Source: Candidatus Fermentibacterota bacterium
GTDB taxonomy: Bacteria; Fermentibacterota; Fermentibacteria; Fermentibacterales; Fermentibacteraceae
DNA length: 64,000 nt
NCBI GenBank assembly: GCA_963718745.1
Contig: OY970370.1
Location: 1,547,566-1,611,565, forward strand
Reading direction: 5' to 3'
The translations under genes were made by a program, and so were the position numbers. Positions 16,264 through 62,448 of the stretch are shown here, in pieces. Numbering within the stretch: position 1 is the first letter of the stretch; each line of letters opens with the position of its first letter. The notes beneath the pieces were generated by a model. It saw only the letters and a list, made by a program, of their open reading frames with translations. It was not told the DNA's origin and did no database searches.

Positions 16264-16667
16264 GCGCGTCCTCGGGCCGACCCCGTAGCACCTCGCCCCA
16301 CGCGTCAGCTGAAAAAGTACAGGGATGCGGGGTCCGCTCCGGCGGGCCCCGCATCCATCTGTGAAACGGTTGCTGGAAGCTCACCAGCCTGATCCATCGA
16401 GGTCTTCCGACCATCAATCCAGCCTGCTTGTCGCCAACTGCCCCCCGGGGCAACGCATTCCCCGCTGATCAAAGAGCGAGTATTCGATGGGAGCACCATG
16501 TCGGACGGACTCTGTGTCCCGAGTTGCTGGTTTCCTCCTGTCTGACTCCCCCGGATGTCTTCATAATCATGCTGGAAACCGATTCGGGCGCGTGGACGGC
16601 CAGGATGGTCATCCTGAGAAATGCGGCACCATGCACACGGTGCCCGAGTCCCCGGAGGGGAGGAACG

Positions 16668-18578: not shown

Positions 18579-18924
18579 CTGCAGGGCGTACACGGCTTCA
18601 CTGGACCCGGCTCCGGTGGGCTGGGAGGAAGGCGGCAGCGCGTGTCTCTTCCTCGACCCGGCCACCCCCTCTCCGTTCTCGTCCCTCACCTCGATAACCT
18701 TCGGCCTGCCGTCGGAATCCCCCTGCAATCTGTCCGTCTACGATGTCTCCGGAAGGCTGGTGCGGACGATCATCGACGCCAGCCTGCCCGGCGGCGGTCA
18801 TGCGGTCGTCTGGGACGGTACGACGGGCTCGGGTGCGAGATGCCCGGACGGAGTCTACTTCATTCGCCTGAGCATTCCGGAGGACGGGCTCACCCGGAGA
18901 GTAGTCCGGCTGGGCGGGGATTGA
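18546..18924 (+). CDS. T9SS C-terminal sorting domain, probable 3' continuation of the C25 peptidase in the +1 frame
   Basis: Frame +1 encodes ...CNLSVYDVSGRLVRTIIDASLPGGGHAVVWDGTTGSGARCPDGVYFIRLSIPEDGLTRRVVRLGGD, a classic Por-secretion C-terminal domain; implies a frameshift near 18530-18550. Confidence 0.5.
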
Positions 18925-18943
18925 CGGCTTTCTAGATCATCAT

Positions 18944-18968
18944 GGGGCGGAGTTCCAGGCTCCGCCCC
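18944..18968 (+). terminator. GC-rich hairpin downstream of C25/CTD gene
   Basis: GGGGCGGAG-TTCCAGG-CTCCGCCCC about 20 nt after the stop; weak T-tract. Confidence 0.35.
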
Positions 18969-19184
18969 TGTCCGACTTGTCCGGTATCAGGCCGGGGTCA
19001 CCTTAAGGACAGGTCTGCAGCAGTTACCAGCCTCCGTCCATCTTCTCTGCGGGCGGCATCCCTCACGCCAGATTCCTGAAAGCGTGCACTGAAGGCGATG
19101 GTGTCGATCTGATGGGCGGAGAGGCATCCACAGAAGGAGTCGGACCCGATCATCCGTTTGACGGTATCCGGAGCTCCGCCTGTC

Positions 19185-19565
19185 TCAGTCGCACACCCAC
19201 CAGCGACCGTCGATCAGAATCATCGCAATCTTGATGTTCGTGGCGAGGATCGAGGCTTCAGCGATATCGTCCCGCACTTCGACATAGACTTCGTAGTCGC
19301 CGGGCAGGTCGGGCATCCCGTCGATCTCCATCGCCTGCCTCAACTCGGCCCGCTGTTCGGGCAGGATCCAGAGCAGCGCAGCTTCCATGTCTTTCCGGTC
19401 TACGGCGTCATAGAAGATTTCGGCGACCATCACCGGATTCGATGTGTCGACCTCGGATTCGGTCGATTCCGCAAAGGAGTCCGTGCTCTCATTCCGGATG
19501 CTTCCGCAAGCCACAGAACCCATGATGAAGACGGAACATGCGAATGCTGCAGCTCTCGACGACAT
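19185..19565 (-). CDS. hypothetical lipoprotein
   Basis: Internal start MSSRAAAFACSVFIMGSVACGS (lipobox). Confidence 0.5.
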   Translation of the reverse strand: MSSRAAAFACSVFIMGSVACGSIRNESTDSFAESTESEVDTSNPVMVAEIFYDAVDRKDMEAALLWILPEQRAELRQAMEIDGMPDLPGDYEVYVEVRDDIAEASILATNIKIAMILIDGRWWVCD

Positions 19566-19816
19566 CGATGCCCCCGTTCGGAGATCCAGCCTTTCTGCGT
19601 TCCCGATATGGAATTCTAAGAAGCTCATCGCTCCTGGAACACCCTGATTGTCCTGTTCGTGAAATTGTCCCTCGAGTGGGCTTCCGGCTCCCGGATGCCC
19701 TGATCACTCAGCTGATCGCAGAAGCAGCAGCCGGAAGGGATCGGAACATCGCAGACATCCTGTATCTGCCTGATGCTGCACAAGCGTGCCTCGTCATCCT
19801 GCCGAAGACGTGTGTA

Positions 19817-20878
19817 TCAGTCGTGGTCGTGCCGGTGGTGGATGTCGGGATAGTGCTGGTGGAAATGAGTCAGCGGAGCATGGATGTGGGGATGGCTGTG
19901 CATCTCTCCGTCGGGTTCGGTGCCGTCGTGCTCATGGGCATGATGTTCGTCGTGGGCGTGAGAATGCTGATGGACGATCTCCTCGTGCGTGTGCTCGTGA
20001 CGGTGCTTTTCCCCCAGCTGCAGCCAGACTCCCAGACCCATCAGGAGCGCTGCCGGGAGCAGCAGGGGGCTTGCCTGCTCCCCTAGGAACAGCAATGAGG
20101 CAATTGCTCCTATGAAGGGCGCCGTCGAGAACAGGGCTCCGGTCCTTGCAGCACCCATGTTGCGCAGGGCCAGCACGAACAGCACCAGGCTGGCGCCATA
20201 GCCTATGAATCCCACCAGGCAGGACATGGCGACCATCGGCGCTCGCGGGACGGCCTGTCCGAGGGTCAGAGCGATCGAGACGTTCACCACGCCTGCGAAC
20301 AACCCCTTGATCCCGGCTATGAGCGCTGGATCCCCCGCCGAGATCCGGCGGGTGAGGTTGTTGTCCACGGCCCAGCAGAGGCAGGCGGCCACGATTGCCA
20401 TCCTTCCGGGCAGACCTGCATCAGTGCCACCCTCTGGTGAGATCGACAGGAAGACGGCTCCCGCGATTATTGCGAGGAGCCCGGATAAAACCTTCAGGCC
20501 GATGTTCTCCCGGAAGACCAGCCATGCCAGAAGGGCTGTCAGGATACCCTCGAGGTTCAGAAGCAGCGACGTGGTGGAGGCAGGGGTGCGCATGAGCCCC
20601 CACATGAGAAGCAGTGGCGCGAGAATTCCGCCCGACAGTACGGCGCCTGCGAGCCAGGGAAGATCAGTCCACGCGAGAGGGGTCGATTGTTTCCGACCCC
20701 TCCCGAACAGTCGACCGGCAATGATCAGCGAGCTGAGACCCAGCCCGGAGCCTAGGTATAGGAGTCCGGCCAGCATGAAGGGTGTGACATCGCCGAGAAG
20801 GGCTTTCGCCGCTGCGGTGGCCCCGCCGAAGAAAGCCGCAGCGACGAGGGCCGGAACCGGACCTTCAGCGATCCTCAA
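19817..20878 (-). CDS. EamA/DMT-family transporter with ~60-aa histidine-rich C-terminal tail
   Basis: About ten TM segments typical of EamA; tail HRHEHTHEEIVHQHSHAHDEHHAHEHDG...HSHPHIHAPLTHFHQHYPDIHHRHDHD. Confidence 0.8.
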   Translation of the reverse strand: MRIAEGPVPALVAAAFFGGATAAAKALLGDVTPFMLAGLLYLGSGLGLSSLIIAGRLFGRGRKQSTPLAWTDLPWLAGAVLSGGILAPLLLMWGLMRTPASTTSLLLNLEGILTALLAWLVFRENIGLKVLSGLLAIIAGAVFLSISPEGGTDAGLPGRMAIVAACLCWAVDNNLTRRISAGDPALIAGIKGLFAGVVNVSIALTLGQAVPRAPMVAMSCLVGFIGYGASLVLFVLALRNMGAARTGALFSTAPFIGAIASLLFLGEQASPLLLPAALLMGLGVWLQLGEKHRHEHTHEEIVHQHSHAHDEHHAHEHDGTEPDGEMHSHPHIHAPLTHFHQHYPDIHHRHDHD

Positions 20879-20884
20879 CTGAGG

Positions 20885-21505
20885 CTATCGCATCCCCCTG
20901 CAGCCGCCACCCGTGCGGCCCATACCGCGCATGCCGTCCATGCCGTTCATCCCGCCCATTCCGCAGCCACCGCGCATGTCGGCACCCATCTGATCGAGGT
21001 CGAGATCCTGCAGCTGCTCCAGCTGACCGGGCGTGAGGACCCCGTGTATGCTCACCAGGGCTTCCTCGTGGATGTTCCTGATCTCGTCGGACAGGTCGGC
21101 GGCCCGGCCTGTGAAGTCCTCGAGAGATGCCACCGAGAAGCTGCTGCTGGAGAAGAGATCGAGGAATGCCCTTGCAGGATCGGCCATCCCGGCCTCTTCG
21201 CGGGCTTCGGAGATCCTCTCCTCGAAACCGGCCATGAGATCATCGATCTCGGCCAACTGGGCATCCGAGAGATCGAGGTATCCCAGGAAGGGCATGATCA
21301 TCATCGGGCAGCCCTGCATCATGTTGCATGATCCCATGCCCATCATGCCGCCACACATGCCACCCATACCGCCCATACCAGACATCCCTGAGCCACGGTC
21401 CATGCCCATACCCATGCCGCCCATTCCGCCGCAGCCCTGTGCCCCGGCCGGGACTGCCAGAGCCAGAACAAGTGCGAGCACGAGCAACCATCTGAAGCGG
21501 TTCAT
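20885..21505 (-). CDS. periplasmic Spy/CpxP/ZraP-like protein with Met/Gly/Cys-rich termini
   Basis: Signal peptide; LTxxQ-type motifs (LDLSDAQLAEI, LTPGQLEQL); MGGMG/CGG repeats at both ends. Confidence 0.65.
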   Translation of the reverse strand: MNRFRWLLVLALVLALAVPAGAQGCGGMGGMGMGMDRGSGMSGMGGMGGMCGGMMGMGSCNMMQGCPMMIMPFLGYLDLSDAQLAEIDDLMAGFEERISEAREEAGMADPARAFLDLFSSSSFSVASLEDFTGRAADLSDEIRNIHEEALVSIHGVLTPGQLEQLQDLDLDQMGADMRGGCGMGGMNGMDGMRGMGRTGGGCRGMR

Positions 21506-21699
21506 CTCCGACTCCTCTCGAAAACCATACGACTATACCCTACCTTACAGGTATTCTATAGTGGAATCACATCTTGTGGTTCCCGACCATTTGAATCAGC
21601 AACGCAAGGTTCGTCCATATCCGCTGACAACCCGCAATCAGGGTCGCTGTATCAGTTGATGATGCCCCAGGGGGGAACAAAGCCCCCCTGGGACAAGTC

Positions 21700-21905
21700 G
21701 TGATAGCTATCTATGCATGGACGAGCCTGCGAGCACGGCGAAGGGGAGACACGGTCGTTGCCGGTTGGAACATCATTATAGCCCAGCTCATCAAGACGCG
21801 GAGTGGAGCAGGGTTGCGTAAGGGCAGCTCAGAATGCCTTCTACCCGCTCTGCTGCAAAGAAGCCTCTCCTGGCCGAGAGAAGGGTAGCCATGTCGGATT
21901 GGAGT
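21700..21905. repeat. mosaic intergenic repeat, copy D
   Basis: About 120 bp nearly identical to 25530..25640 and about 55 bp to 29545..29600; lies between the FG-GAP gene stop and the Met-rich gene; a 10-bp GC hairpin sits at 21666..21692. Confidence 0.6.
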
Positions 21906-21934
21906 ACCAGGAGGAAAGGTCCTCCCGCTCGATG

Positions 21935-23755
21935 CTACTCCACCACCACGACGCGTCTCGCGGTCTCGAACTCCCCGGCCTGCATCCTTACGAAGTAGAC
22001 GCCCGGGGGATGCTCGCCCAGTCCAACCTGCGAATAGCCGGGCTGGTATTCGATCGAACCCGTCGATTCCGCAACCCTGCCCGCGATGTCCAGAACGGTC
22101 AGAGTCACCATGGAAGGCTCGGGAATGCCGATCGTGACGAGCAGGGGCCCGGAGACGGGATTGGACACGAAGGGCATCAGCTCGAAACCGCCGGGCATCT
22201 CCGGCCCCTCCGTGCCGAGCGGGTTCCAGGAGACCGTTACGTCGAGCAGAGCGGGGCTGGCGCCGGGATCGTCCGTCGTCATCACGGACCTGTACTGGAA
22301 GTAGTTCGCTCCCTCAGGAAGCACGCCCGCGAGACTGCACGGGTCATCGAGAATGGCCGACCACGCCCCCATCTCGTCGGAATCGTCCGAAGCGCGCACC
22401 TGGAAGGAAATGTCGGTCTGGGAGGGAGAGTCTTCAGTCCATGTCAGACCTCCCCAGCCCGGATCGCCCTGCAGGTATAGGATGCTGGATTCCAGGACCG
22501 CCTCGTTCACATGGATGTCCCACCAGCGGAAGAAGTGCAGGTCCGGCTCGAAGCTGGTCCCCAGGATGTCCATCCAGCCGTCGCCGTCCACGTCACCCGG
22601 GATGATGCAGTCGGCAGTGTTGTACTCCCCGATGTCGCAGACCGTGTGCTCCTCCCAGTCCGTCCCCAGTCCGTCGGAGTTCTCGATCCAGATGTACTGT
22701 CCGCCAAGCCCCGTTGTGACCAGGATGTCGCTGTCTCCGTCCCGGTCGAGATCGCCGGACCCGAGGCCCCAGCAGCAATCGGAATAGGCTGCAACTACGT
22801 GCTTGGTCCAGTCCGAACCCGTGCCGCTCAGGTTCTCCCACCACGAGACGGCGTCCGAGTCAGTACCTGAACCGAGGACGTCGAGATCCCCGTCTCCGTC
22901 GAAATCGGCCGCATGGACGGAGAACGAGCTGTTGTAGCCGTCATCTATGGCGGCCATGGTCCAGGTCGTCCCGAGACCGTCGGTGTTCTCGAGCCAGAAC
23001 ACGCCGTACTCGGCTGAACCTGCGGCAATGATGTCCAGATCTCCGTCTCCGTCCAGATCGCCGGGATGCACACCGTGGTAGGAACTGCTGAGCCCCGTAT
23101 CGATCTCATGTTCGAGCCAGTCGGAGCCGTCCCCCTCGACGTTCTCCCACCAGTACCAGTACAGGCCGAAGACGTCTGCGCAGACGATGTCGATGTCTCC
23201 ATCCCCGTCGAAGTCCCCCGTGCACGGGGTCACTGGCATCTCTGGAGCGGCGCTGATCGAACAACCGATCCATAGAGTCCCCTGGCCGTCCACGTTCTCG
23301 AACCAGGAGACCAGGTCCTGGGCTGCGACGAAGTCGGTGTCGCCGTCGCCGTCGATGTCGCTCGCGCAGATGTATCCGCCGGTTGCAGCTGCTATAAAGT
23401 GAATCGTCCAGTCGGTGCCCGTGCCGTCGTTGTTCTCCCACCAGCAGACGGTGGAGGAGCTGCTCGCAACGACGTCCAGGTCCCCGTCGCCGTCCATGTC
23501 GGCAGCATCCAGGTATTCGGGCTCGAAGATGTCGTCGATGGTGTTCTCGTACTCTCCAGGGAGGATCCCGACCTGCCCGGCGGGAGACGACCACGACGCT
23601 CCGGCGCATTCGTAGAATTCTCCACCCCATGCCGTTACCGGCCCCTGAGTCCCGGGGCCGCCGGCCCAGTCGGTCTGGCTTTCGCTGTCGGCATGGCAGA
23701 CGGAAACTGTAATCAGAAGGGCTATGAGGAGGAAGAGTCGCTGCATCCGGACCAC
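21935..23755 (-). CDS. FG-GAP/VCBS repeat protein with T9SS C-terminal sorting domain
   Basis: Signal peptide; repeated DxDGDGDxD calcium-binding-like motifs; C-terminus TLTVLDIAGRVAE...PGVYFVRMQAGEFETARRVVVVE. Confidence 0.8.
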   Translation of the reverse strand: MVRMQRLFLLIALLITVSVCHADSESQTDWAGGPGTQGPVTAWGGEFYECAGASWSSPAGQVGILPGEYENTIDDIFEPEYLDAADMDGDGDLDVVASSSSTVCWWENNDGTGTDWTIHFIAAATGGYICASDIDGDGDTDFVAAQDLVSWFENVDGQGTLWIGCSISAAPEMPVTPCTGDFDGDGDIDIVCADVFGLYWYWWENVEGDGSDWLEHEIDTGLSSSYHGVHPGDLDGDGDLDIIAAGSAEYGVFWLENTDGLGTTWTMAAIDDGYNSSFSVHAADFDGDGDLDVLGSGTDSDAVSWWENLSGTGSDWTKHVVAAYSDCCWGLGSGDLDRDGDSDILVTTGLGGQYIWIENSDGLGTDWEEHTVCDIGEYNTADCIIPGDVDGDGWMDILGTSFEPDLHFFRWWDIHVNEAVLESSILYLQGDPGWGGLTWTEDSPSQTDISFQVRASDDSDEMGAWSAILDDPCSLAGVLPEGANYFQYRSVMTTDDPGASPALLDVTVSWNPLGTEGPEMPGGFELMPFVSNPVSGPLLVTIGIPEPSMVTLTVLDIAGRVAESTGSIEYQPGYSQVGLGEHPPGVYFVRMQAGEFETARRVVVVE

Positions 23756-24053
23756 CCCCGTTTAAATTTTCACTGCATATCTGATCTCGCACGACATCAG
23801 ACCTGCGTCAAGCCCAACTTCCAGATCGCTTTGACTTCAGGTCCCAGCTCTGGTCGAAGGTTTCGCAGCAGTTTCTTTCGCTAGGCGGAAGACAGGAGTC
23901 ATTCACCTTGAATCCTTTTCATGACCGAGCAAGCTCTGGTTACTGCGGTGCAGTCCTCTGGAGGCACCGACCCTCCCGATCTGCCGGAAACCTGTAAATG
24001 TCCTGCCCGGGAAGCATATCCATCGTTTTCTACGATCCGATGAAGGGTAGGCA

Positions 24054-24082
24054 TTGACTCTACGTACGGCATTGCGTACGAT
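24054..24082 (+). promoter_or_regulatory. sigma70-like promoter TTGACT-N17-TACGAT with CGTACG-N6-CGTACG operator palindromes
   Basis: About 25 nt upstream of the antitoxin start; paired short palindromes in a toxin-antitoxin promoter are the expected autoregulation architecture. Confidence 0.45.
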
Positions 24083-24105
24083 ACAGAAGATAGAAAGGGG
24101 AGCGT

Positions 24106-24348
24106 ATGTCAGCGTTGAGCGCCACTGATGCAAGAGCCCGGCTGTACCGCCTCATCGACGAGGCGGCCGAGACTCATGAACCGATCCTGATAACCGGGAA
24201 GCGGAGTAACGCCATTCTCCTCTCGGAGGAGGACTGGCGTTCGATCCAGGAAACCCTGTTCCTGCTCTCGGTCCCCGGCATGCGCGAGAGCATCGTCGAG
24301 GGCATGAAGACACCGGTCGAGAAGTGCAGCGAGAAGCCCGGCTGGTGA
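24106..24348 (+). CDS. yefM: type II antitoxin, Phd/YefM family
   Basis: 80 aa; MSALSATDARARLYRLIDEAAETHEPILITGKRSNAILLSEEDWRSIQETLFLLSVPGM matches YefM; AAAGGGGA RBS. Confidence 0.85.
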   Translation: MSALSATDARARLYRLIDEAAETHEPILITGKRSNAILLSEEDWRSIQETLFLLSVPGMRESIVEGMKTPVEKCSEKPGW

Positions 24349-24608
24349 CCTGGCGCCTGGTCTACACTGCGCAGGCCCGGAAGGACGCGAAGAAGATCCA
24401 GGCAGCCAGCCTCCGGGAAAAGACGGAAGCTCTCCTCGAACTGATCGCGAAGGATCCTTGCGCCGCCCCTCCTCCCTTCGAGAGGCTCCTCGGTGACCTG
24501 AAGGGCGCGATATCCCGCAGGATCAACATCCAGCACAGACTTGTCTACCAGGTTCTCGAAGCAGAGAAGACCATCAAGGTCCTCAGGATATGGACGCACT
24601 TCGAGTAG
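24324..24608 (+). CDS. yoeB: type II toxin, YoeB/Txe family
   Basis: RLVYTAQARKDAKKI...RRINIQHRLVYQV...IWTHFE matches YoeB; the likely start is the GTG at 24345 overlapping the antitoxin stop. Confidence 0.85.
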   Translation: MQREARLVTWRLVYTAQARKDAKKIQAASLREKTEALLELIAKDPCAAPPPFERLLGDLKGAISRRINIQHRLVYQVLEAEKTIKVLRIWTHFE

Positions 24609-24705
24609 ACAGAATCAGCCCTCTGGAAGCATGACCGCCATGCCTTCTTGCCTGCCTGGACCCTCTTCCGTATCGTCACTTCTGGCGTATGCGAGAGGGG
24701 GGCGT

Positions 24706-25182
24706 ATGCGGATCGTCGCCGAAGTTCTCGGGCTAGTCACGATCTTCACTTTGATGCTCTCAGGATGCGGCAGTTATGAGGACGAAACCGTCATCTTCAC
24801 CAAGGTCCTCCCGGCTGACGTTCAGCAGCTCATGGACAACGGGTATCTCGACAGCGGGGGTGCAAACCCCATCCTTTATCCTGTCGAGGAAATGTGGGAA
24901 GACTTCTACTTCGCAGAAACCCCCGAGATGCTGGACTCCCTGTTCCAGGAATATCCTCCAGTTCTGGACAGCCTCTTCCCGGAAGGCGGCTCACTTCTGA
25001 TCCTGGACCTCCACACAGAAATTGAGGATGAAGTTCTAGGCTACTCTATGGAAGCCAGTTCTGACACAGTGCGGATATGTGTTGAGATAAGATACCGAGA
25101 TGTCGGAAGCCCTTATCCAGGGATTCGCGAGTGGGTTTTCCCGATGGGAGTTGTTCTTGATCCGGAGACTCCCGCTGAGTAG
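24706..25182 (+). CDS. hypothetical lipoprotein
   Basis: Internal start MRIVAEVLGLVTIFTLMLSGCGS with GAGAGGGGGG RBS. Confidence 0.55.
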   Translation: MRIVAEVLGLVTIFTLMLSGCGSYEDETVIFTKVLPADVQQLMDNGYLDSGGANPILYPVEEMWEDFYFAETPEMLDSLFQEYPPVLDSLFPEGGSLLILDLHTEIEDEVLGYSMEASSDTVRICVEIRYRDVGSPYPGIREWVFPMGVVLDPETPAE

Positions 25183-25307
25183 ACTGACGCCGACCAGCTG
25201 ACCTCGCGGACTTCCACACGGATGCAGTAGACGATCTCGCCTAAACCCCGTAATCTCAAAAGGCTTCAACATCCTGGGGCTGCTCAACAACCCGAAGAAG
25301 ACGGATG

Positions 25308-25640
25308 TGTCCCACGGGGATACGCAGCCCCCCGTGGACCGGTCGCGCGAACGAATCGAGCTGAATGGCAGTTGTGAGCGCGACAAGGCATCATCACGGT
25401 CGTTTCACGGAAACGACGATGCTGTGCTTATCTACTGGTGGTGATGATGCCTTTGCCACTTCCCGCAGGGAAGTGGCGGTCCTGGTCCTTTGTGGATGGA
25501 ACACCCTGATGGCCCAACTCGTGAAGATTGCGGCGTGGAGCAGAGTTTCGTAAGGTCTGCTCAGAATGTCCTCTACCCGCTCTGCTGCAAATAAGCCTCT
25601 CCTGGCCGGAGAAGTAATAGCCATGTCGGATTGGAGAATG
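25308..25640. repeat. mosaic intergenic repeat, copy A (includes a hairpin variant of the tRNA-Glu 3'-end motif)
   Basis: About 270 bp aligns with 27396..27650 at high identity; its 3' part matches copy D. Confidence 0.65.
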
Positions 25641-25794
25641 GCCTGAACAATGTGGATGGGATTGCAGGCCAGCTCGATTCCGGATGATCAATTCCCTCGA
25701 TGTTGACGACACTCACATCTGAACTTGCTGGCATGTCCTAGTCTAGGCATAGATAGAATACACTCGGCTTCGGTAATGGGCTGGAGGTGGAACG

Positions 25795-27285
25795 GTGTTG
25801 GCGCTCCTTTTACTTGCAGCGACCGCGAGTCCACCCGAGATCCTGTGGGCTGCCTGGTCCCCTGGCGGGATAGTTGATGTAGAGTGCGCCGGCTTCGTGA
25901 ATGGCGACTCCACCGAAGATGTCTTTGCCGCGTCAGATGAAGCCTCCGGGCATGGCATCATGTGCCTGGACGGGGCTACAGGTGGAATCATCTGGCTCAA
26001 CGACTCTCTTCCGGGAATCACTGGCACGGGTTGCCTCCGAGCTATCAGAGACGTGAATCTTGACGGAGTTCATGATGTTGCGGCAGGTTCATCGGCGAAT
26101 CCTGCGGTGGCTGTCTTCTCTGGAAGCACAGGTGAGATTCTGTGGAGCATTCCCCAGGAGTATCCGGTCTGTTGGATCGAGGCCGCCAATGGTCCTGGTC
26201 CCTCGGACGTCTACGTTCTTGTTAACCGACAGAACTCATACTGGACCAGTTGTGCCGCGCTTGTCGGTCAAACTGGAGCGCAGCAGTGGGCCACGCCTTA
26301 CGTGGCAACCACAGATCTCTGGCTAAGAGCGACTGAAGGTGACATCAACGGTACAGGCTGGTCCGAGTTCGGTATATCGGTTGACAGGGGATCTGTCAGC
26401 GGCGGATGGGCCGACGTGATGGACGGTTCGAATGGCGGCCTGATCCATCGAGAAAACACGATGTATTTCGGATCCATGGACGTATGCGACACGCCCATGC
26501 CGTTGATGGTCATGTCTCACTTCGGAACCTACCCCGTGACATGGGCGTACTCCTTTGTCTCGGGCACTGTAGTATGGCAGAGTTACAACCCGGATCTGGG
26601 TGGCGCCCAGCTCCAGATTCTCCCGAGCATCACCCAGCCTGCCACCCCGGATCGTGAGATCCTCGGATTCGGAAGCAGCAGCCACCTGGTCCTGTTCAGT
26701 TGTGATGAGGAATACACTGACGTTTTTGTTGAATACGTCTTTCCGAGCGCGATCAGGGCGGTTGACTATTTCTGTGAGGCTGCAACGTGGAGGGTTGCCT
26801 TGGTGACCTCGGCCAGATTCCATTGCCCCCTGCTGGACCTTTGGTCCCCACCTTCCACAGAGCCTTCAATCGCCTTGCCTAACGCGGATGCACAGGATCT
26901 TTGCCTGATCGAGTCGGTTCTCTCTCCGACACCACTCGTAGCTGTCGCAATGAAAGCAGCCGGACCAGGTGTCTGCGCGATTCGCACCACATGGCCCGAA
27001 GGCATCGAGGAGGAAAGCACAGCCCCCAATCTGGTCTTGAGCTCCTGTTCGCCTAGTCCTGGGACGGGGGAGTTCAGTCTCACCTGGTCATCCGGCATGG
27101 GGCCGACGGAGATCGGAGTCTATGAGGAATCCGGCAGACTCTGCCTCGATTGCGACCTGGGTCTGATGCCCGAAGGCGAACACTCCACACAGCTCGACCT
27201 GCAGGAAATGCCCTCCGGCTGCTATGTGGTCGTAGTCTCCTGTGGCACAGAGCGGGCCTCCACGAAGCTGGTTGTGCTCAGGTAG
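25795..27285 (+). CDS. secreted repeat protein with T9SS-like C-terminal domain
   Basis: GTG start with GGAGGTGG RBS; signal MLALLLLAATASPP; C-terminus GVYEESGRLCLDCDLG...PSGCYVVVVSCGTERASTKLVVLR. Confidence 0.7.
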   Translation: MLALLLLAATASPPEILWAAWSPGGIVDVECAGFVNGDSTEDVFAASDEASGHGIMCLDGATGGIIWLNDSLPGITGTGCLRAIRDVNLDGVHDVAAGSSANPAVAVFSGSTGEILWSIPQEYPVCWIEAANGPGPSDVYVLVNRQNSYWTSCAALVGQTGAQQWATPYVATTDLWLRATEGDINGTGWSEFGISVDRGSVSGGWADVMDGSNGGLIHRENTMYFGSMDVCDTPMPLMVMSHFGTYPVTWAYSFVSGTVVWQSYNPDLGGAQLQILPSITQPATPDREILGFGSSSHLVLFSCDEEYTDVFVEYVFPSAIRAVDYFCEAATWRVALVTSARFHCPLLDLWSPPSTEPSIALPNADAQDLCLIESVLSPTPLVAVAMKAAGPGVCAIRTTWPEGIEEESTAPNLVLSSCSPSPGTGEFSLTWSSGMGPTEIGVYEESGRLCLDCDLGLMPEGEHSTQLDLQEMPSGCYVVVVSCGTERASTKLVVLR

Positions 27286-27375
27286 GAGAGCCTCCGAAGC
27301 TGCTTCCCGATTCCGTGCTGTAGTGCGTCTGGCTGTCTGTATTAGCGCAAAATATTGCTGTATAACTGATTATAT

Positions 27376-27660
27376 GGTGGCGGTCCCACGGGGCAACGCA
27401 GTCCCCCGTGGACCGGTCGCGCGAACGATTCGAGATGGATAGCCGTTGTGAGCGCGACAAGGCATCATCACGTCGTTTCTCTGGGAACGACGATGCTGTG
27501 CTTATCTACTGGTGGTGATGATGCCTTTGCCACTTCCCGCAGGGAAGTGGCGGGCCTGGTCCTTCGTGGATGGAACACCCTGATGGCCCAGCTCATCAAG
27601 ATCGCAGCCTGGAGCGAGGTTTCGTGAGGGGCAGCTCAGGATGGTGTTATCAGCTCCAAT
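27376..27660. repeat. mosaic intergenic repeat, copy B (starts with a duplicate of the tRNA-Glu 3' terminus)
   Basis: TGGCGGTCCCACGGGG (revcomp = the last 16 nt of tRNA-Glu) followed by the CAACGCAGT-loop hairpin and about 250 bp shared with copy A. Confidence 0.65.
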
Positions 27661-27845
27661 TGGCCATCGATCCTCTACAGGATGGAGAAGTAGTAGCCAG
27701 AGGGGATTGGACCACCACGGTATCTTGCCATTGTTGTGTCTGGTCGACTACAGATCGCTGCCGTCAACCAACCGAGCTAGCTGGTTAGGATACTGGAGCT
27801 CCATGCCCCAGTTCTGAAGACCTTCCTAATGGAACAGCCAACCCA

Positions 27846-28931
27846 CTACTGCAGCTCGAAAATGTAGACCCGGGGCCACGAGCTGGCGAAAGGATTCCAG
27901 GCAAGAATCCCGCGATCTGTGATGCGGAAGATCATCAGCTCGTCGCCGGGGAGGCCACTGACAGCGGAGGTGAACTCCAGCGTGCCATCCGACCTATACA
28001 CGTCGAACTCAGGGTGGAAATAGGAACTGTGGTGCACCCAGACCCTTCCCAGGGAATCCTGGACCTGGATCCCGATCACACCCAGCTCCCTTGGATCAGG
28101 GCGCCAGGCCCCGCCCATGTTGTCACGGTACCGGCGCCAGAGGAGTTCCTCCTCTACTTCCAGAGAATCGCGGAAACCTGGTTCCCGGGGATTTTGAAGA
28201 GTATCCAGGGGGGTACCGTCCTGCGCTAAAACTAGGACACGATTGTTGACGCCAGAGAGGGCCACATATATGTGCCCGTCACTATCTGTAGTTACTGCAG
28301 GCTGTCCGGCATAAAGCTCGTAGAGATCCTCGGGATTGATGCTGATCTGCTGAAGTGAGCTAAAGGTAGTGGTTATCTCTCCGGTGTCGATGCTCCACCG
28401 GGACAAGTCCATAGAAAGCGTGAGATCGCCATTCTGATCCGCAGTGAGATTCCCGGCCCAGCCGAGAGCGGAGCTGTCTGGAAGGATACTCAGCTGATCG
28501 ATGACCGAATTTCCGGGGAGTGTGACGGAACGCACCGTTGCCAAATCAGCTCGGTAGTACACAAATCGTCGAAGGTAGTATTCGTATAGGACGAAGCCTT
28601 CGCCGAATGGCGTTATCCCACCGATGTGATTGTATTCCAAAGGGCCATTGCCCAGATTCTTGACCCGGCTGATGCAGAGACCATCCGGAGAAAACAGACG
28701 CAGATCCTGATACGCCCCGTCCGCAACCAGTATGTTTCCGTCCGGTATGAAGAATGCCCCAGCGACTTTGCCCAGTAAAAGGTTGCTATCTCCGATTTCA
28801 ACTCCGATGGAATCGACAACTCGCAGTTCTCTGTATGTGATCGGATCATCGGTTGCTGGTGTGGGTCCTTTGCAGGCGATAGCCATAAGGATCAATGGCC
28901 CGCCTGAAACAAGGAAATATCCACTTCTCAT
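27846..28931 (-). CDS. hypothetical lipoprotein, beta-propeller-like
   Basis: Start MRSGYFLVSGGPLILMAIACKG (lipobox) with GGAGG RBS; repetitive beta-rich sequence. Confidence 0.65.
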   Translation of the reverse strand: MRSGYFLVSGGPLILMAIACKGPTPATDDPITYRELRVVDSIGVEIGDSNLLLGKVAGAFFIPDGNILVADGAYQDLRLFSPDGLCISRVKNLGNGPLEYNHIGGITPFGEGFVLYEYYLRRFVYYRADLATVRSVTLPGNSVIDQLSILPDSSALGWAGNLTADQNGDLTLSMDLSRWSIDTGEITTTFSSLQQISINPEDLYELYAGQPAVTTDSDGHIYVALSGVNNRVLVLAQDGTPLDTLQNPREPGFRDSLEVEEELLWRRYRDNMGGAWRPDPRELGVIGIQVQDSLGRVWVHHSSYFHPEFDVYRSDGTLEFTSAVSGLPGDELMIFRITDRGILAWNPFASSWPRVYIFELQ

Positions 28932-29149
28932 CCCGCTAATCACCTCCAGTCTGCAATATCATCAGTTTCGCAGCTCTGCCTGTCTAGTTACAGGGATCGA
29001 AGTCCAATCCGGGGAAGGTCAGCATTCCGAGCTTCAGAACCCGGGGACCGTTAATGCGATCCTTCAAGACAAGGACGAGCTGCTTGCACGACCAGGCATC
29101 GTCATGGTCGTTTTAGGAAACGACGGCTCTGAGCTTGTAACCAGTTGGT

Positions 29150-29650
29150 GATGATGCCTTTGCCACTTCCCATGGGGAGGACGCTCAGGCCCTCTCGCGG
29201 CTCGTCTCTTCAGTTTCGCAAGGCGAAACTGATACTTAGCAGAACACTCCAGTTCCGCGAAGCGAAAATGGTACGTAGCGCAACAGCATGGTTCCCGAAG
29301 GGAACCTGCGAGTGCGCGTGTCTGTGTTACCAGGGAACCTGCAAGTGTGCGTGAATGTCGTTGAAGGCTTTACCGCTCTCGCAGGTCCGCTTCGCGGACC
29401 GTGCTGCCGCTAAACTCATCCCTCTTCGCGGGATTCGAGACCTGTCGGGCCAGGTCATTCCCGCAGACGCGGGAATGACCGTGGCGGTCCCACGGGGCAA
29501 CGCAGTCCCCCGTGGACCTGCCGTGAGAGCTTCGTGCGAATACTGTGAGCCTGCGAGCACGGCGCAGGGACGACACGGTTGTTGCCGGAGGGAACGACCA
29601 TTCAACCGTTATGTCTTCGAGGTGTCGTCACTGCTGCCACTTGCCGGAGG
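29150..29650. repeat. mosaic hairpin-rich repeat block, copy C, directly downstream of tRNA-Glu
   Basis: Contains a second duplicate of the tRNA-Glu 3' end (~29482..29497), the hairpin GGTCATTCCCGC-AGAC-GCGGGAATGACC, and units shared with copies D and E. Confidence 0.65.
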
Positions 29651-29654
29651 CAAG

Positions 29655-29730
29655 TGGCGGTCCCACGGGGAATCGAACCCCGGTTTGATGGCTGAGAACC
29701 ACCCGTCCTAGACCTCTAGACGATGGGACC
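29655..29730 (-). tRNA. tRNA-Glu (anticodon CUC)
   Basis: Revcomp GGTCCCATCGTCTAGAGGTCTAGGACGGGTGGTTCTCAGCCATCAAACCGGGGTTCGATTCCCCGTGGGACCGCCA; cloverleaf with TTCTCAG anticodon loop; CCA encoded. Confidence 0.9.
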
Positions 29731-42463: not shown

Positions 42464-43165
42464 CTACCGGCGCTTGTCCTGCGCCCGCGAGAGGAGCATG
42501 CCGTCGACCAGGGCGGCCTGCTCGAGGATCTCCGGTTCGGGGCAGCGCCTGGAGACCGATTCGATGAACGGAGGCTGTCTGAGTGCGAAGGCCAGCCTGG
42601 AGAGGAGGTCGAGATGCGAGTTGACCGTCGGGCTTATCATCATGAAGAGGGTGTCGACAGGCCTGCCGTCGAGGGCTCCGAACTCTATCCCGCGCTCCAG
42701 GAAGGAGAGCGTGATGATCGGCCGGGGTATGTCCAGGACGATCGGATTGCGCACGTGGGGGATGGCTATCCCGTCCCCGATGCCCGTCGAGGCGAGGGCT
42801 TCACGGGCTTCGAGGATCTGCAGGAGGTACTTCCTGTCCGCGCTTTCCGGAACGGGCATCAGGGCTAGCGTCGCTTCGAGGACCGAGTGGCGGTCGCCGC
42901 CGGTTACGCCGTACCGGATTCCTCCGGCCTGGAGGGCGTCCCGGAGACCCCACGCCCCGGCCGGGTCATCCGATCCAGCCCCGGAGAAGAGCCCGGAGGC
43001 GAGGGGGATCTGCCTGCGCGTGGCCCACTCCAGAAGCTCGGTGCGGTTGAAGCGGTACTGCCCGCCCACCTTGACCGCGGGCAGGGCATCCTCGCGTATC
43101 CAGCGGAGGAGGGTCTTCTCCGGCACCCCCATGATCCCCGCGGCCTCTCTCATCCCAAGCTGCAT
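42464..43165 (-). CDS. MerR/excisionase-type HTH fused to PTS EIIA(Ntr)-like domain, putative regulator
   Basis: Start MQLGMREAAGIMGVPEKTLLRWIRE (HTH); C-terminal EIIA-2-like region with GIAIPH; ends 8 nt before the first gene of the hyf-like operon. Confidence 0.65.
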   Translation of the reverse strand: MQLGMREAAGIMGVPEKTLLRWIREDALPAVKVGGQYRFNRTELLEWATRRQIPLASGLFSGAGSDDPAGAWGLRDALQAGGIRYGVTGGDRHSVLEATLALMPVPESADRKYLLQILEAREALASTGIGDGIAIPHVRNPIVLDIPRPIITLSFLERGIEFGALDGRPVDTLFMMISPTVNSHLDLLSRLAFALRQPPFIESVSRRCPEPEILEQAALVDGMLLSRAQDKRR

Positions 43166-43167
43166 GG

Positions 43168-43196
43168 CACCAGTTCCTGGTTTAAAATAGCTTGAA
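43168..43196. promoter_or_regulatory. conserved 29-bp intergenic motif (copy 2)
   Basis: Differs at three positions from 2602..2630; abuts the start codon of the MerR-EIIA gene. Confidence 0.35.
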
Positions 43197-43379
43197 AACG
43201 GTCGGTAAAATATTGATGGGCAGAGAGATGAGAGAAAAACAGATCTGGCTGCGTCTCTCCGCTCGAACTGCCATATAACTAACCGTACTCCGGGTCTGCT
43301 GCAAGGTCGAACAAGGCCCATTCCTGGTTTCAGATCCCTCATTCCGGCTGAGCCGGAATGAGCAGGTAGCACATCAGCA

Positions 43380-43860
43380 TGGTTCAAAAAGGAAGGACGC
43401 TCGGGCCCTCTCGCGGTTCGCCACTCCAGTTCCGCGAGGCGGAACTGGTAGGTAGCACGACAGCATGGTTCCCGGAGGGAACCTGCGAAAGTGCGTGCAA
43501 GTCGTTATAGAGGTCGCTCGGAGCCCTCTCGCGGCTCGCCTCTTCCGGCTGATGCTCTGTGAGCTGGCGAGCCACTGACGGGCCAGGTCGTTCCTGCGCT
43601 TGCAGGAACGACCGATGCGAGTGTGCGTGCATGTGTTATAGAGGTTCGCTCGGGCCCTTTCGCGGCTCGCCTCTCCGGAATGTTCTTGATCTGGCGAGCC
43701 ACTGACGGGCCATGTCATTCCCGCGGACGCGGAGTTGATGGAAGCCCTGCGGGCTCGTTTGAGGAAGATCGCCCGGGTCCTCTCGTTATCCGCCAGACGT
43801 CTTGAACAACGGATGGCGGATAACTGTCGGACCTGGTCATTCCTGCCCGTGCAGGAATGA
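43380..43860. repeat. mosaic hairpin-rich repeat block, copy E, directly downstream of tRNA-Ser
   Basis: Tandem ~130-bp units sharing blocks with copy C; perfect hairpin GGTCATTCCTGC-CCGT-GCAGGAATGACC abutting the tRNA-Ser 3' end, plus variants with compensatory stem changes. Confidence 0.65.
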
Positions 43861-43863
43861 CCG

Positions 43864-43956
43864 TGGCGGAGAGGGAGGGATTCGAACCCTCGGATAGGTG
43901 ATAAGCCCATCAACCGCTTAGCAGGCGGTTGCCTTCAGCCTCTCGGCCACCTCTCC
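43864..43956 (-). tRNA. tRNA-Ser (anticodon GCU)
   Basis: Revcomp GGAGAGGTGGCCGAGAGGCTGAAGGCAACCGCCTGCTAAGCGGTT...GAGGGTTCGAATCCCTCCCTCTCCGCCA with long variable arm; CCA encoded. Confidence 0.9.
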
Positions 43957-44103
43957 GCATGGTCGGTGATTATCGGCCGGGAGTGCCGGACAGTCAAGCT
44001 GTGATCCAGCCGCGTCGGCACCGCTGCGCCGCTGCATCGGGGCGATATCCGTTTTGAGTATAGTCCGTACCTGCACGGACGGACGATCCGGGGGAGGTGA
44101 CGG

Positions 44104-45417
44104 ATGCCGAGGATCGACAGGCTTGTGATCGGGATATTCGGGAGGATCAACGCCGGCAAGAGCACGCTCATGAATCTCCTCACCCAGCAGGAGACCTCGA
44201 TAGTTGATCCGACCCCCGGGACGACGGCGGATATCAAGACCGCCGTAATGGAGATCCACTCGCTCGGTCCCGCGCGGCTGCTCGACACCGCGGGCCTCGA
44301 CGAGAAGGGGGAGCTCGGCGACAAGAAGCGCCGGAAGGGTTTCGCCGCGCTCGAGGAATGCGACGTCGCCCTGCTCGTGATCGATCCGATCCAGACCTTC
44401 CTGTCCAATACCCTCGATGTGGAGGAGACCATCGGCAATGCCGCACGGAGGCACGGAAGGGCTCTCGCCGTCGTCTTCAACATCAGGCGGGGATCGGAGC
44501 GGGCGGCGGAGGATGCCGGGACGAGCCTGGGTGATGCGATCGAGTTCTGCCGGACCGCGCTGCCCGACAGGGCGGCCGTTCCGTCCTGTACCACCGACCT
44601 GGCCGACCCGTCGGCGCTCTCCGGGATAGTGAGCCTTATCGAGCGGGCGCGCCCGGCTGCCGACGCGCACCCGCCTCTCCTGCCTTTCATCAGGCCGCGC
44701 GGAGCGGTGCTCCTTCACATCCCCATGGACGAGGAGACCCCGTCGGGCAGGCTCCTGCGGCCCCAGGAGATGGCGATGGAGCACCTCCTGAGGATGATGG
44801 TCCCCGTGGGTCTCTACCGGACCGACCTCAGGCTGGGGCGGAGTTCCACCGAGTCGCTGGCTGCCGCCGAGAGGCGGAAGTTCGAGGCCTTTCTCGGATC
44901 CCTCGGTGGAGACCAGGGAGTCCAGCTCGTCCTCACCGACTCCCAGGCGGTCGACCTGATGAAGGACTGGGTCCCCCGGGACATCCCCCTGACCACCTTC
45001 TCGATAATGATGATCAACCAGACCGCAGGCGGGGATCTGGCGCTCTTCGCGAAGGGCACGGAGGCGCTGGGGCGGCTCGTGCCGGGCGACCGGGTGCTGA
45101 TCGTGGAGGCCTGCAACCACGACCGGATGGCCGAGGACATCGGCACGGTCCAGATCCCGGCAAAGCTCCAGGCTGCAGTTCCAGGCCTGGAGATCGACCA
45201 CGCATTCGGGCGGGAGTTCCCTGATCCGGCCGGTCTGTCACGCTACAGCGTTGCCGTGCATTGCGGAGGCTGTATGATTAGCCGTCAGGCCGCCTCCGCC
45301 AGGGTCAGGAGGCTCGTCGAGGCGGGCGTGCCCGTCACCAACTACGGCCTGGCCCTGTCCTGGTTCGAGGGTCCTGAAGTCCTCGCCAGAGTCCTTGCGC
45401 CCTGGACCGAAAGGTAG
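44104..45417 (+). CDS. hydF: [FeFe]-hydrogenase maturation GTPase HydF
   Basis: G1 motif GRINAGKST and G3 DTAG; HydF-specific C-terminus (LTTFSI, EACNHDRMAEDIGTVQIP, VHCGGCMISR, TNYG). Confidence 0.8.
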   Translation: MPRIDRLVIGIFGRINAGKSTLMNLLTQQETSIVDPTPGTTADIKTAVMEIHSLGPARLLDTAGLDEKGELGDKKRRKGFAALEECDVALLVIDPIQTFLSNTLDVEETIGNAARRHGRALAVVFNIRRGSERAAEDAGTSLGDAIEFCRTALPDRAAVPSCTTDLADPSALSGIVSLIERARPAADAHPPLLPFIRPRGAVLLHIPMDEETPSGRLLRPQEMAMEHLLRMMVPVGLYRTDLRLGRSSTESLAAAERRKFEAFLGSLGGDQGVQLVLTDSQAVDLMKDWVPRDIPLTTFSIMMINQTAGGDLALFAKGTEALGRLVPGDRVLIVEACNHDRMAEDIGTVQIPAKLQAAVPGLEIDHAFGREFPDPAGLSRYSVAVHCGGCMISRQAASARVRRLVEAGVPVTNYGLALSWFEGPEVLARVLAPWTER

Positions 45418-56987: not shown

Positions 56988-57416
56988 TCAGTCCGGCAGG
57001 ATGTCGCTGAAGAAGACTACGTAGGCGGCTATCCTCACCAGCATCTGCTCGTCGGAGCCGTCGGTGTACAGCAGCGTGCTGAAGCTGCGGTCCTCGACGG
57101 TCCCGTCGCTCGATATCGTGATCAGGCAGCTGAAGGACGTGTCAGTCAGCCTTCCGTCATCCTCGAGGTGGTACAGGGTGTTGAAGCTCGCCCCCTCGAT
57201 CCGGCCGTCCCGGATGTAGCCGAGCGTGCGGAAGGACGAGTCCTCGACCCTGGAGTCGTCGCGGATGTACCCCAGCGTGCTGAAGGAGGAATCCTCGATG
57301 CGGCCGTCTTCCCTTATGTAAGCGAGTGTGGAGAAGCTGTCGTCCTCGAGGCGGAGATCACCGGCGGATGCGGAGGTGACCGTCATCATGATAGCAAAAA
57401 ACAGCAGGTTCCTCAT
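56988..57416 (-). CDS. secreted tandem-repeat protein (six ~17-aa SFSTLGYIRxDGRxEDS units)
   Basis: Signal peptide MRNLLFFAIMMTVTSASA; repeats visible directly in the translation. Confidence 0.55.
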   Translation of the reverse strand: MRNLLFFAIMMTVTSASAGDLRLEDDSFSTLAYIREDGRIEDSSFSTLGYIRDDSRVEDSSFRTLGYIRDGRIEGASFNTLYHLEDDGRLTDTSFSCLITISSDGTVEDRSFSTLLYTDGSDEQMLVRIAAYVVFFSDILPD

Positions 57417-62076: not shown

Positions 62077-62153
<77 letters not shown>

Positions 62154-62158
62154 GTCTC

Positions 62159-62193
62159 GCCCCCGGTAGGCCGCAACCGGGGGCTATTCTTTT
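62159..62193 (+). terminator. rho-independent terminator after tRNA-fMet
   Basis: GCCCCCGGT-AGGCCGCA-ACCGGGGGC hairpin followed by TATTCTTTT. Confidence 0.6.
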
Positions 62194-62448
62194 ATGGCAG
62201 GACTTCGTCGACTGCCCCGAGCTATCGGGGTCAGACCCCAGTTAGGTTCATATACTTGTACTGCAACAATATGCCTCTGTATAGTGTCTGAGCCCCGGAT
62301 TGCCAACTGCCGGTTGCAGTATCGGTGCCTGCCACTCGTGGGGGACCTAGTCGCTGACATGACGCCATGATCGAGAAGGCACTGTAGGAACCGGGATACT
62401 CCAGAGCAGTGTTATTGACAAATAGGGCCTCAAGCGTTAATAACGGAC

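Follow-up and report, generated by a model that had tools for sequence, protein, structure and literature searches.

The stretch analysed here, 64,000 nt of contig OY970370.1 from a Candidatus Fermentibacterota bacterium (the window), carries a tRNA-Ser(GCT) gene on its minus strand at positions 43864-43956 (ARAGORN; Rfam RF00005, 59 bits), with its CCA encoded at 43864-43866. Since the gene lies on the minus strand, its 3′ side points to lower coordinates. On that side a 695-nt spacer (43169-43863) separates it from a PTS-EIIA/HTH gene (42464-43168, minus strand), and most of this spacer is taken up by a 526-nt block of hairpin repeats (43338-43863), in which three units in direct orientation are accompanied by a short inverted one and by fragments. 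The repeating unit, called A/B unit hereafter, is bipartite and consists of a clamp-type module A followed by a hairpin, module B. The A/B family is real, non-random and previously undescribed; no description of it was found in the literature on tRNA-flanking palindromic repeats or on Fermentibacter repeats.

The unit closest to the tRNA ends in module B1, a perfect 12-bp hairpin (GGTCATTCCTGC-CCGT-GCAGGAATGACC, 43835-43862) which has no mismatch in its 12 pairs, forms in the predicted DNA folds of either strand and is separated from the CCA by the single base G43863. The whole unit, U1, was modelled on the plus strand, antisense to the tRNA (43769-43864; cmsearch 94.1 bits, E 3e-19), and its DNA fold reaches -32 kcal/mol (z -7.6). 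Further from the tRNA lie U2 (43646-43742, plus strand, 79.8 bits), with an intact module A and a degenerate module B (GTCATTCCCGC-GGAC-GCGGAGTTGAT, about 43709-43735), and U3 (43515-43615, plus strand, 83.2 bits), which carries a perfect module B (GGTCGTTCCTGC-GCTT-GCAGGAACGACC) at 43586-43613. These scores of 94, 80 and 83 bits are high by construction because the three units belong to the seed of the covariance model, R1, which was built from 12 units. Tandem Repeats Finder (TRF) delimits a 127-nt tandem duplication on the plus strand at 43484-43725, encompassing a spacer (TGCGAGTGTGCGTGC..GTTATAGAGG), module A and module B (period 127 nt, 1.9 copies, 85% matches, score 355). The tRNA-touching unit is a third, more diverged copy, and the recent duplication is confined to the middle part of the block.

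The remainder of the block is less regular. An inverted short unit (43422-43502, minus strand; cmsearch 27.7 bits, regular-expression scan) consists of a B-like hairpin, CCAGTTCCGC-GAG-GCGGAACTGG, at 43426-43448 and of a short module A, CTTTCGCAGGTTCCC-TCC-GGGAACCATGCTGTCG on the minus strand, at 43458-43491. It breaks a long module A, of which the 5′ half (CGCTCGGGCCCTCTCGCGGTTCGCC) is found at 43397-43425 (plus strand, 21.2 bits). At the distal end, a repeat search revealed a perfect B-type hairpin, CTCATTCCGGCT-G-AGCCGGAATGAG (43338-43362), and a truncated inverted short module A, together spanning 43338-43385; an identical hairpin adjoins a tRNA-Arg gene at a related locus (L020). B-type hairpins thus bound the block at both ends and, given the inverted short units and the distal hairpin, the block is a mosaic rather than a plain tandem array. 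The initial annotation had recognised the perfect 12-bp hairpin at the CCA end and two or three tandem units of about 130 bp, in agreement with the structure described here. Its range (43380-43956) includes the tRNA itself and stops short of the distal end at 43338.

On the plus strand, antisense to the tRNAs, module A reads GGCCC-TCTCGC, a variable stem-loop of 8-9 bp, and ACTGWC-GGGCC. Its conserved flanks clamp a freely covarying stem, whose loop is either about 20 nt or about 3 nt long. Module B is a 12-bp hairpin, GGTCATTCCNGC-N4-GCNGGAATGACC, followed by CG (1-2 nt in the window); in most relatives it reads CTCATTCC...GGAATGAG. A short form of module A (CTCTCGCAGGTTCSC, a loop of 3 nt, GSGAACC..CTGTCG) occurs inverted inside arrays. 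The whole unit is non-coding, measures about 95 nt and occurs in direct tandem, inverted, long, short, truncated and nested forms. The R1 model misses the short units of loci L027 and L034, so that negative results obtained with it hold for long units only.

The structure of the unit is under selection. In the alignment of 12 units, 96.4% of the cells assigned to helices are paired, compared with 33-44% when the partners are slid, and compensatory changes are found at 13 pairs (40 cells), a level reached by 0 of 500 shuffles. Helix 2 of module A, which lies outside the constraint imposed by the search pattern, shows double changes in 7 of its 9 pairs. In a set of 24 distinct A modules of both lengths, 205 of the 208 stem pairs are Watson-Crick and only 3 are G-T, and DNA folding is equally good for either strand. 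Moreover, the module B hairpin pattern is matched 3 times in the window where 0.01 match is expected. One could suppose that the block arose by chance or by local tandem duplication without belonging to any family, and part of it is indeed a simple 127-nt tandem duplication. However, related units at no fewer than 8 independent loci in several assemblies, with compensatory changes in their stems, refute this explanation. An Rfam search of both repeat blocks of the window, at the gathering threshold and at E <= 10, gave no match except the tRNAs, sub-threshold matches being noise. Hammerhead, K-turn and attC identities were considered and dropped as the defining motifs are absent from the sequence.

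The second block lies downstream of tRNA-Glu(CTC) (29655-29730, minus strand; ARAGORN, Rfam). This mosaic occupies 29175-29480 on the plus strand, and its blastn alignments to the tRNA-Ser block are 87% identical over 76 nt, 82% over 67 nt and 83% over 46 nt. Its terminal unit (29377-29482; 43.6 bits with cmsearch) ends in a module B at 29453-29480 with the same 28-nt hairpin pattern, which bears out the kinship between the two blocks proposed in the initial annotation. The further statement that two tRNAs carry the same downstream architecture holds for the relatedness of the blocks and fails at the point of contact: the module B adjoins a 17-nt duplicate of the tRNA-Glu 3′ end (G-TGGCGGTCCCACGGGG, 29481-29497, plus strand, identified by sequence comparison), 173 nt away from the true end of the gene. 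According to model and regular-expression scans, all A and B modules of the window are confined to these two tRNA-flanking blocks. The third and last tRNA gene identified in the window by ARAGORN and Rfam, tRNA-Met(CAT) (62077-62153, plus strand), is followed by an ordinary terminator with hairpin and T-run (62159-62194, plus strand) and by no A/B unit, and region 62077-62194 served as negative control.

Between the duplicated fragment and the true tRNA-Glu gene lies an element of a second repeat family, E2, distinct from the A/B unit (29498-29654, minus strand). E2 elements measure about 125-175 nt and were found in the window at 29481-29654, 27377-27555, 25309-25485, 21666-21800 and about 16442, and in relatives at 2036-2160 of L005 and 7640-8200 of L030, the latter a Fermentibacter daniensis-like locus with several tandem E2 copies after tRNA-Glu. 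One end of the element is a minihelix mimicking the T-stem, the acceptor 3′ strand and the CCA of tRNA-Glu (GTCCACGGGGGACTGCGTTGCCCCGTGGGACCGCCA); the other is a hairpin overlapping CCA (GCCACTTSCC..GGSAAGTGGC). The copies at 29481-29518 and 27377-27414 are identical at 38 of 38 positions. E2 elements look like miniature integrating elements or remnants similar to cis-mobilizable elements (CIMEs).

The tRNA-Glu(CTC) site of locus L032 is empty: the CCA directly meets the flank found at 27345-27376 in the window. By comparison, the window site holds an insertion of about 2.1-2.3 kb comprising two E2 elements, the A/B block and an open reading frame (ORF) of 365 aa without family matches. On either side of the insert stands an identical copy of the tRNA-Glu 3′ end, and an arrangement resembling attachment-site (att) direct repeats is seen only for the separate E2 element and the insert at this tRNA. 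As the L032 site is empty, the window tRNA-Glu block came with or after an insertion. More generally, the 3′ flank of tRNA-Glu(CTC) is an insertion hot spot (27378-29670 in the window; L029, L030, L032, L034 and L035): it holds an IS1595 transposase gene and a large serine recombinase gene in L029, serine recombinase genes in L034 and L035 and a helicase-like gene in L030. Genes for secreted proteins with type IX secretion system (T9SS) sorting domains, FG-GAP or peptidase C25 matches, some of them weak, often adjoin arrays or E2 copies (window 16428-28943, L011, L012, L013), in loose parallel to the way hairpin repeats gather near variable surface genes in Neisseria.

Relatives were searched with a pattern derived from the junction between modules A and B and devoid of tRNA sequence. 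Scanning of genome and metagenome collections returned 8 and 10 loci, respectively. The A/B units were found in metagenome-assembled genomes (MAGs) of Fermentibacteria and in digester metagenomes (L008-L015, L017, L020, L022 and L024). HydF and GluRS assign the window to the Fermentibacteraceae. Among named organisms, those that come closest are Aegiribacteria, Fermentibacteria and Candidatus Fermentibacter daniensis, whose GluRS is about 80% identical, and the G+C content of the window, 63.8%, agrees with this group. Matches from unrelated organisms were limited to L016, L018, L019, L021 and L023 in the metagenome collection and L007 in the genome scan. Those in L019 and L023 are chance matches within genes. 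The other four are a lone, near-identical hairpin, GTCATTCCCGC-N4-GCGGGAAYGAC, located directly after a stop codon in L016 (1843-1870), L018 (2495-2522) and L021 (1260-1287) and in non-coding DNA in L007 (1985-2012; Dehalococcoidia). The palindrome is therefore widespread far beyond Fermentibacteria and Neisseria. No pattern match was found in viral contigs or plasmids.

The same exact junction, ...GAATGA(G/C)C-G followed directly by TGG, the complement of CCA, was observed at four tRNA species. It is present at tRNA-Ser(GCT) in the window and, in relatives located through their HydF orthologues, in L005/L006 and L027/L028, the latter with short units and a variant module B. The pattern scan revealed it at tRNA-Lys(TTT) in L009, L014 and L022, where the block fills the gap to tRNA-Glu(TTC). 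At tRNA-Arg(CCT), in L020, it occurs once at the full gene and once at a displaced 3′ half severed within the anticodon loop. The fourth case is the tRNA-Glu(CTC) 3′ copy of the window. In addition, a degenerate displaced fragment of tRNA-Met forms a junction in L010/L017, where the real tRNA-Met retains its own terminator. Arrays away from tRNA genes (L011/L012, L013/L015 with two units, and L024) follow the 3′ ends of protein genes or terminators, with the module B side turned towards the closest gene 3′ end or terminator hairpin in L011/L012, in both units of L013 and in L024. Of 9-10 independent sites, about 5 are tRNA 3′ ends by our count; given that tRNA genes number about 45 in a total of about 2,300, we estimate this proportion to be far above chance.

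Other repeats were encountered at these loci. Downstream of tRNA-Leu(GAG) in L008 (5830-6910), tandem units of about 190 nt each contain a copy of the tRNA terminator, a fragment resembling the T-arm and acceptor 3′ part of tRNA-Leu, a further hairpin and a short module A in inverted orientation; among these units sits one long A/B unit, oriented opposite to tRNA-Leu. Just past the short A/B units at tRNA-Ser in L027, positions 1-170 contain about 4 tandem copies of a 37-nt unit (CCTGTCGCTATCGCCGTCCCGCAAGTGGGACTACCGA). Related short A modules occur at 103-156 of L034 and 1265-1318 of L035.

The duplicated tRNA ends raise the possibility that the A/B units are scars of tRNA-targeting integrative elements, that is, arm-site leftovers flanking att sites that were built up by repeated integration and decay. 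Fragments of tRNA 3′ ends do stand beside units at the Glu (17 nt, window), Arg (3′ half, L020) and Met (degenerate, L010) loci, and the recombinase and transposase genes at the tRNA-Glu site of relatives point the same way. On the other hand, the 3′-terminal 25-mer of tRNA-Ser has no second copy within the window, so the tRNA-Ser block is not bounded by att repeats. A single unit family at no fewer than four tRNA genes of differing sequence is unlike the product of a sequence-specific integrase, and units follow protein genes as well. Furthermore, the unit stays with the displaced tRNA end, i.e. the older flank, which fits a unit already in place before the insertion, and the Glu fragment might rather represent the 3′ terminus of an E2 element. 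We therefore regard an origin as integrase scars as very unlikely.

The association with tRNA genes is neither specific nor obligate. The description as a tRNA-3′-end-associated element holds at the CCA junctions of tRNA-Ser, tRNA-Lys and tRNA-Arg, whereas arrays also follow protein genes and some tRNAs have no unit. No unit follows tRNA-Met in the window, no long unit was detected by R1 downstream of tRNA-Glu(TTC) in L009, and no A/B unit accompanies tRNA-Ser in L032 or the orthologous tRNA-Ser of the F. daniensis-like loci L001, L003 and L026. Among the tRNA loci compared, some lack the element, and relatives carry the block at tRNA sites and not only elsewhere. Overall, three lineages have units at the tRNA-Ser site, whereas in L032 and the F. 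daniensis-like genomes this site is either empty or taken by something else. The occupant in the F. daniensis-like genomes is another small element, similar to miniature inverted-repeat transposable elements, with terminal inverted repeats of about 30 nt (GGTGTCAGAGGAAAAAACGT...) and an AT-rich core of 130-140 nt (616-811 in L003, 216-411 in L001, 7762-7960 in L026).

Turnover is also seen between occupied sites. At tRNA-Lys, the flanks of L009 and L014 seem nearly the same on visual inspection alone, yet the arrays measure 497 and 258 nt and the module A stems read TTGCCCGCC and CGGTTCGCC, respectively, a compensated difference. Since orthologous sites may have a unit, lack it or carry another in its place, the units are dispensable for the tRNA. 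Many short-read contigs end within or beside A/B arrays. In L005 (8540-9720) a stop-interrupted ISL3-family transposase gene ends about 20 nt before two A/B units that adjoin tRNA-Ser; A/B arrays may attract insertion sequences (IS).

The position of the blocks raises the question of their transcription. A promoter-like sequence, TTGACT-17-GATAAT, lies directly upstream of tRNA-Ser (43969-43997, minus strand; 10/12 matches, 2 sites compared with 0.3 expected), from which transcription of the tRNA would continue into the repeat block, and the sequence scan detected a promoter-like site for tRNA-Glu(CTC) at 29775-29746 on the minus strand. A scan of the window found no terminator with hairpin and T-run adjoining either gene. 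As each of the two genes is preceded by a promoter-like site of its own and lacks an adjoining terminator of this kind, the blocks are probably transcribed as 3′ trailers. The possibility that the block is itself an intrinsic terminator was dropped, as no T-run follows the hairpin.

These features are those expected if B-A, read from the tRNA, were a functional transcribed 3′ trailer (a U-tract-free terminator, an exonuclease barrier or a processing signal) spread through selection. The block folds well as RNA (z = -9.9 for the whole block), and the orientation of the units is constant relative to the upstream gene. In L014 the block occupies a terminator-like position: it fills the interval from tRNA-Lys to a tRNA-Glu(TTC) promoter recognised in the sequence, the near-consensus TTGACT-N18-GATAAT. 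On the tRNA-sense strand, purines dominate the internal loop of module A (GWCAG/CGAGA), which from its sequence could form tandem G-A pairs. Finally, the cells that are not Watson-Crick comprise 9 G-U pairs and 4 mismatches on the tRNA-sense strand, compared with 2 G-U pairs and 11 mismatches on the other. However, 7 of the 9 G-U cells come from a single column, so this asymmetry only hints that folding takes place on the tRNA-sense strand, and the near-strict Watson-Crick stems of module A would be unusual for an RNA family. Inverted units are also present inside arrays, and no Rfam family is matched. In bacterial tRNA maturation, a hairpin 1-2 nt after the CCA is expected to hinder exonucleolytic 3′ trimming, so a module B in that position would impede rather than aid it. 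Moreover, tRNA-Ser does without the block in the F. daniensis-like genomes and L032, and tRNA-Met is served by an ordinary terminator. A role of the unit at the RNA level is thus conceivable, though we consider it doubtful.

Module B can also be compared with hairpins that act as single-stranded DNA. In Neisseria, the GIY-YIG nuclease SsnA acts on the repeat NTS in single-stranded form, and NTS-like hairpins and Ssn genes are reported in many phyla (PMC11893778). By analogy, module B could be the hairpin that an Ssn-family nuclease recognises, in which case the arrays would mark single-stranded cut sites that modulate recombination or uptake. The module B at 29453-29480 agrees with the 28-nt NTS consensus at 21 positions, including GTCATTCCCGC and GCGGGAAT and a 4-nt loop. 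At 29457-29476 it is a literal match to the Neisseria repeat dRS3, ATTCCC-N8-GGGAAT, as are copies in L009, L020 and L022, while the tRNA-Ser copy reads ATTCCT..AGGAAT and most relatives have CTCATTCC. The lone hairpin after stop codons in unrelated bacteria (L016/L021 and L018) and in the non-coding DNA of L007 would fit such a role, and the arrays flank T9SS-secreted protein genes loosely as NTS lies near variable genes. However, neither strand of the window matches the published NTS pattern (CGTCATTCCCGCGMAVGCGGGAATCYRG; PMC11893778) or the degenerate SRM pattern, and no module B copy in the examined loci fits SRM; the sole SRM matches, in L001-L003, are unrelated sequences at the level of shuffled windows (0.9 per 64 kb). 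The C directly after the palindrome, reported as key for SsnA binding, is G here, and most copies from Fermentibacteria have CTC in place of the GTC that precedes it. NTS has an orientation whereas the module B palindrome is symmetric, and a crude regular expression covering the window and the fetched loci found no GIY-YIG-like ORF. Nor does this explanation account for module A. We take the likeness to NTS as a lead rather than as evidence of membership, and find it unlikely that the arrays are Ssn cut sites.

Taken together, these data favour the view that the block consists of arrayed copies of a modular, lineage-specific hairpin repeat of Fermentibacteraceae, of the type represented by the repetitive extragenic palindromes (REPs), the bacterial interspersed mosaic elements (BIMEs) and the Neisseria intergenic mosaic elements (NIMEs), which spreads at the DNA level and whose placement is decided by structure; we give this reading a probability of roughly 0.55. 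The anatomy of the unit, its covariation and distribution, the exact junctions and the presence/absence polymorphism are observed directly. The insertion mechanism, a trans-acting enzyme and effects on transcripts form the conjectural part. Units would spread and turn over as DNA, by hairpin-directed insertion and/or by gene conversion and unequal recombination. They would land module B first, in a fixed orientation, at the 3′ foot of a stable helix ending a transcription unit, mostly a tRNA acceptor stem with its CCA, alternatively a tRNA-end mimic or a terminator hairpin. Placement by structure rather than by sequence is suggested because units adjoin tRNAs of unrelated sequence, a tRNA-end mimic and terminators.

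Several points weigh against this interpretation. No transposase, nuclease or recombinase is tied to the units; none was seen beside the arrays, whose loci were not systematically annotated for proteins. Neither a target-site duplication nor a clean pair of empty and filled sites was seen at the compared loci. Exact-pattern matches number just 3-4 per MAG, far below classical REP counts. The strand asymmetry described above (9 + 4 compared with 2 + 11) and the fixed orientation relative to gene 3′ ends are relevant here too, the latter fitting a role at the RNA level equally well. Finally, the persistence of units at the tRNA-Ser site across lineages with only 70-73% HydF identity could reflect selection and not targeting.

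Going one step further, the A/B unit might be a non-autonomous mobile element, representing a new class of targeting, that recognises, in folded single-stranded DNA, the 3′ foot of an acceptor-like helix and inserts right after the CCA whatever the tRNA sequence; or else B-A might be a U-tract-independent module forming tRNA 3′ ends in Fermentibacterota. We put forward this pair of proposals as speculative, and hold it to be doubtful as it stands. The unusual feature of the family is its anchoring at CCA + 1-2 nt, common to at least four tRNA species. So far, a few well-studied phyla have yielded mosaic palindromic repeats, whose choice of sites is mostly unsolved; the A/B family comes from an uncultured phylum, and its exact junction, shared by unrelated tRNAs, therefore makes it a clean test case for structure-directed insertion versus selection on transcripts. 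In practical terms, A/B arrays at tRNA loci are points where short-read assemblies of Fermentibacteria break. The flanks of tRNA-Glu and tRNA-Ser are hot spots at which several kinds of small element gather.

Some neighbouring features complete the description of the window. The HydF gene (44104-45417, plus strand) lies on the opposite flank of tRNA-Ser. Between the repeat block and the start of the PTS-EIIA/HTH gene, an AT-richer stretch of 132 nt is flanked by a 15-nt direct repeat, TTCCTGGTTTAAAAT (43174-43188) and TTCCTGGTTTCAGAT (43321-43335), 87% identical; the pair may be due to chance or may be a footprint. Elsewhere in the window, TRF detected a 51-nt tandem repeat (2.3 copies, 76% matches, 57206-57320) and a 9-nt tandem repeat, GCCGCCCAT (6.6 copies, 20906-20964), which falls within an ORF with weak LTXXQ and Metal_resist matches, under the Pfam cut-offs.

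The A/B family can be compared with four known systems. Integrase-borne islands and CIMEs share with it the use of a tRNA 3′ end as landing site, and duplicated 3′ fragments are found at the Glu, Arg, Met and Leu loci studied here. Unlike such islands, A/B units do not duplicate the tRNA end (tRNA-Ser, tRNA-Lys), measure about 95 nt, are non-coding and are common to unrelated tRNAs. The attC sites of integrons resemble module A in that the outer pairs are conserved, the internal loops are unpaired and the inner stem and loop vary, a layout in which a protein can recognise the structure together with a few fixed bases. However, module A has no R/L core (GTTRRRY) and is associated with neither cassettes nor IntI, so the parallel is an analogy of design only.

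In the NIMEs of Neisseria, as would also hold for the A/B arrays, repeat blocks are delimited by a 20-nt palindrome, of which only some module B copies show the literal dRS3 form, and both dRS3/NTS and module B are hairpins thought to act as single-stranded DNA. The A/B family differs in that the published NTS and SRM patterns are unmatched, key flanking bases are different, the palindrome is symmetric and the phylum is another one; no ssnA homologue was found by the crude regular expression in the window and the fetched loci only. The main text of the study describing NTS and SsnA does not mention tRNA (0 occurrences; PMC11893778).

The fourth parallel is with the REP and BIME elements of Enterobacteria and Pseudomonas, including the REPINs associated with REP-associated tyrosine transposases (RAYTs). 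These differ from the A/B family in several respects. The A/B unit, of about 95 nt, is bipartite, with its clamp-type module A and its module B, and it is linked to no RAYT or other enzyme; no candidate was seen beside the arrays, which were inspected without systematic annotation. Its copy number is apparently modest, with 2 arrays in 64 kb and the few exact-pattern matches per related MAG given above, compared with tens to hundreds of copies for REP and BIME. To our knowledge, placement 1-2 nt after a tRNA CCA is not a described property of REPs. The two also have features in common: both are short GC-rich extragenic palindromes located mostly at gene 3′ ends, both form mosaics of direct and inverted copies joined by linker motifs, both combine covarying stems with conserved flanking motifs, and both break assemblies; A/B units, like REP and BIME elements, may also attract IS insertions, as suggested by the ISL3 remnant in L005.

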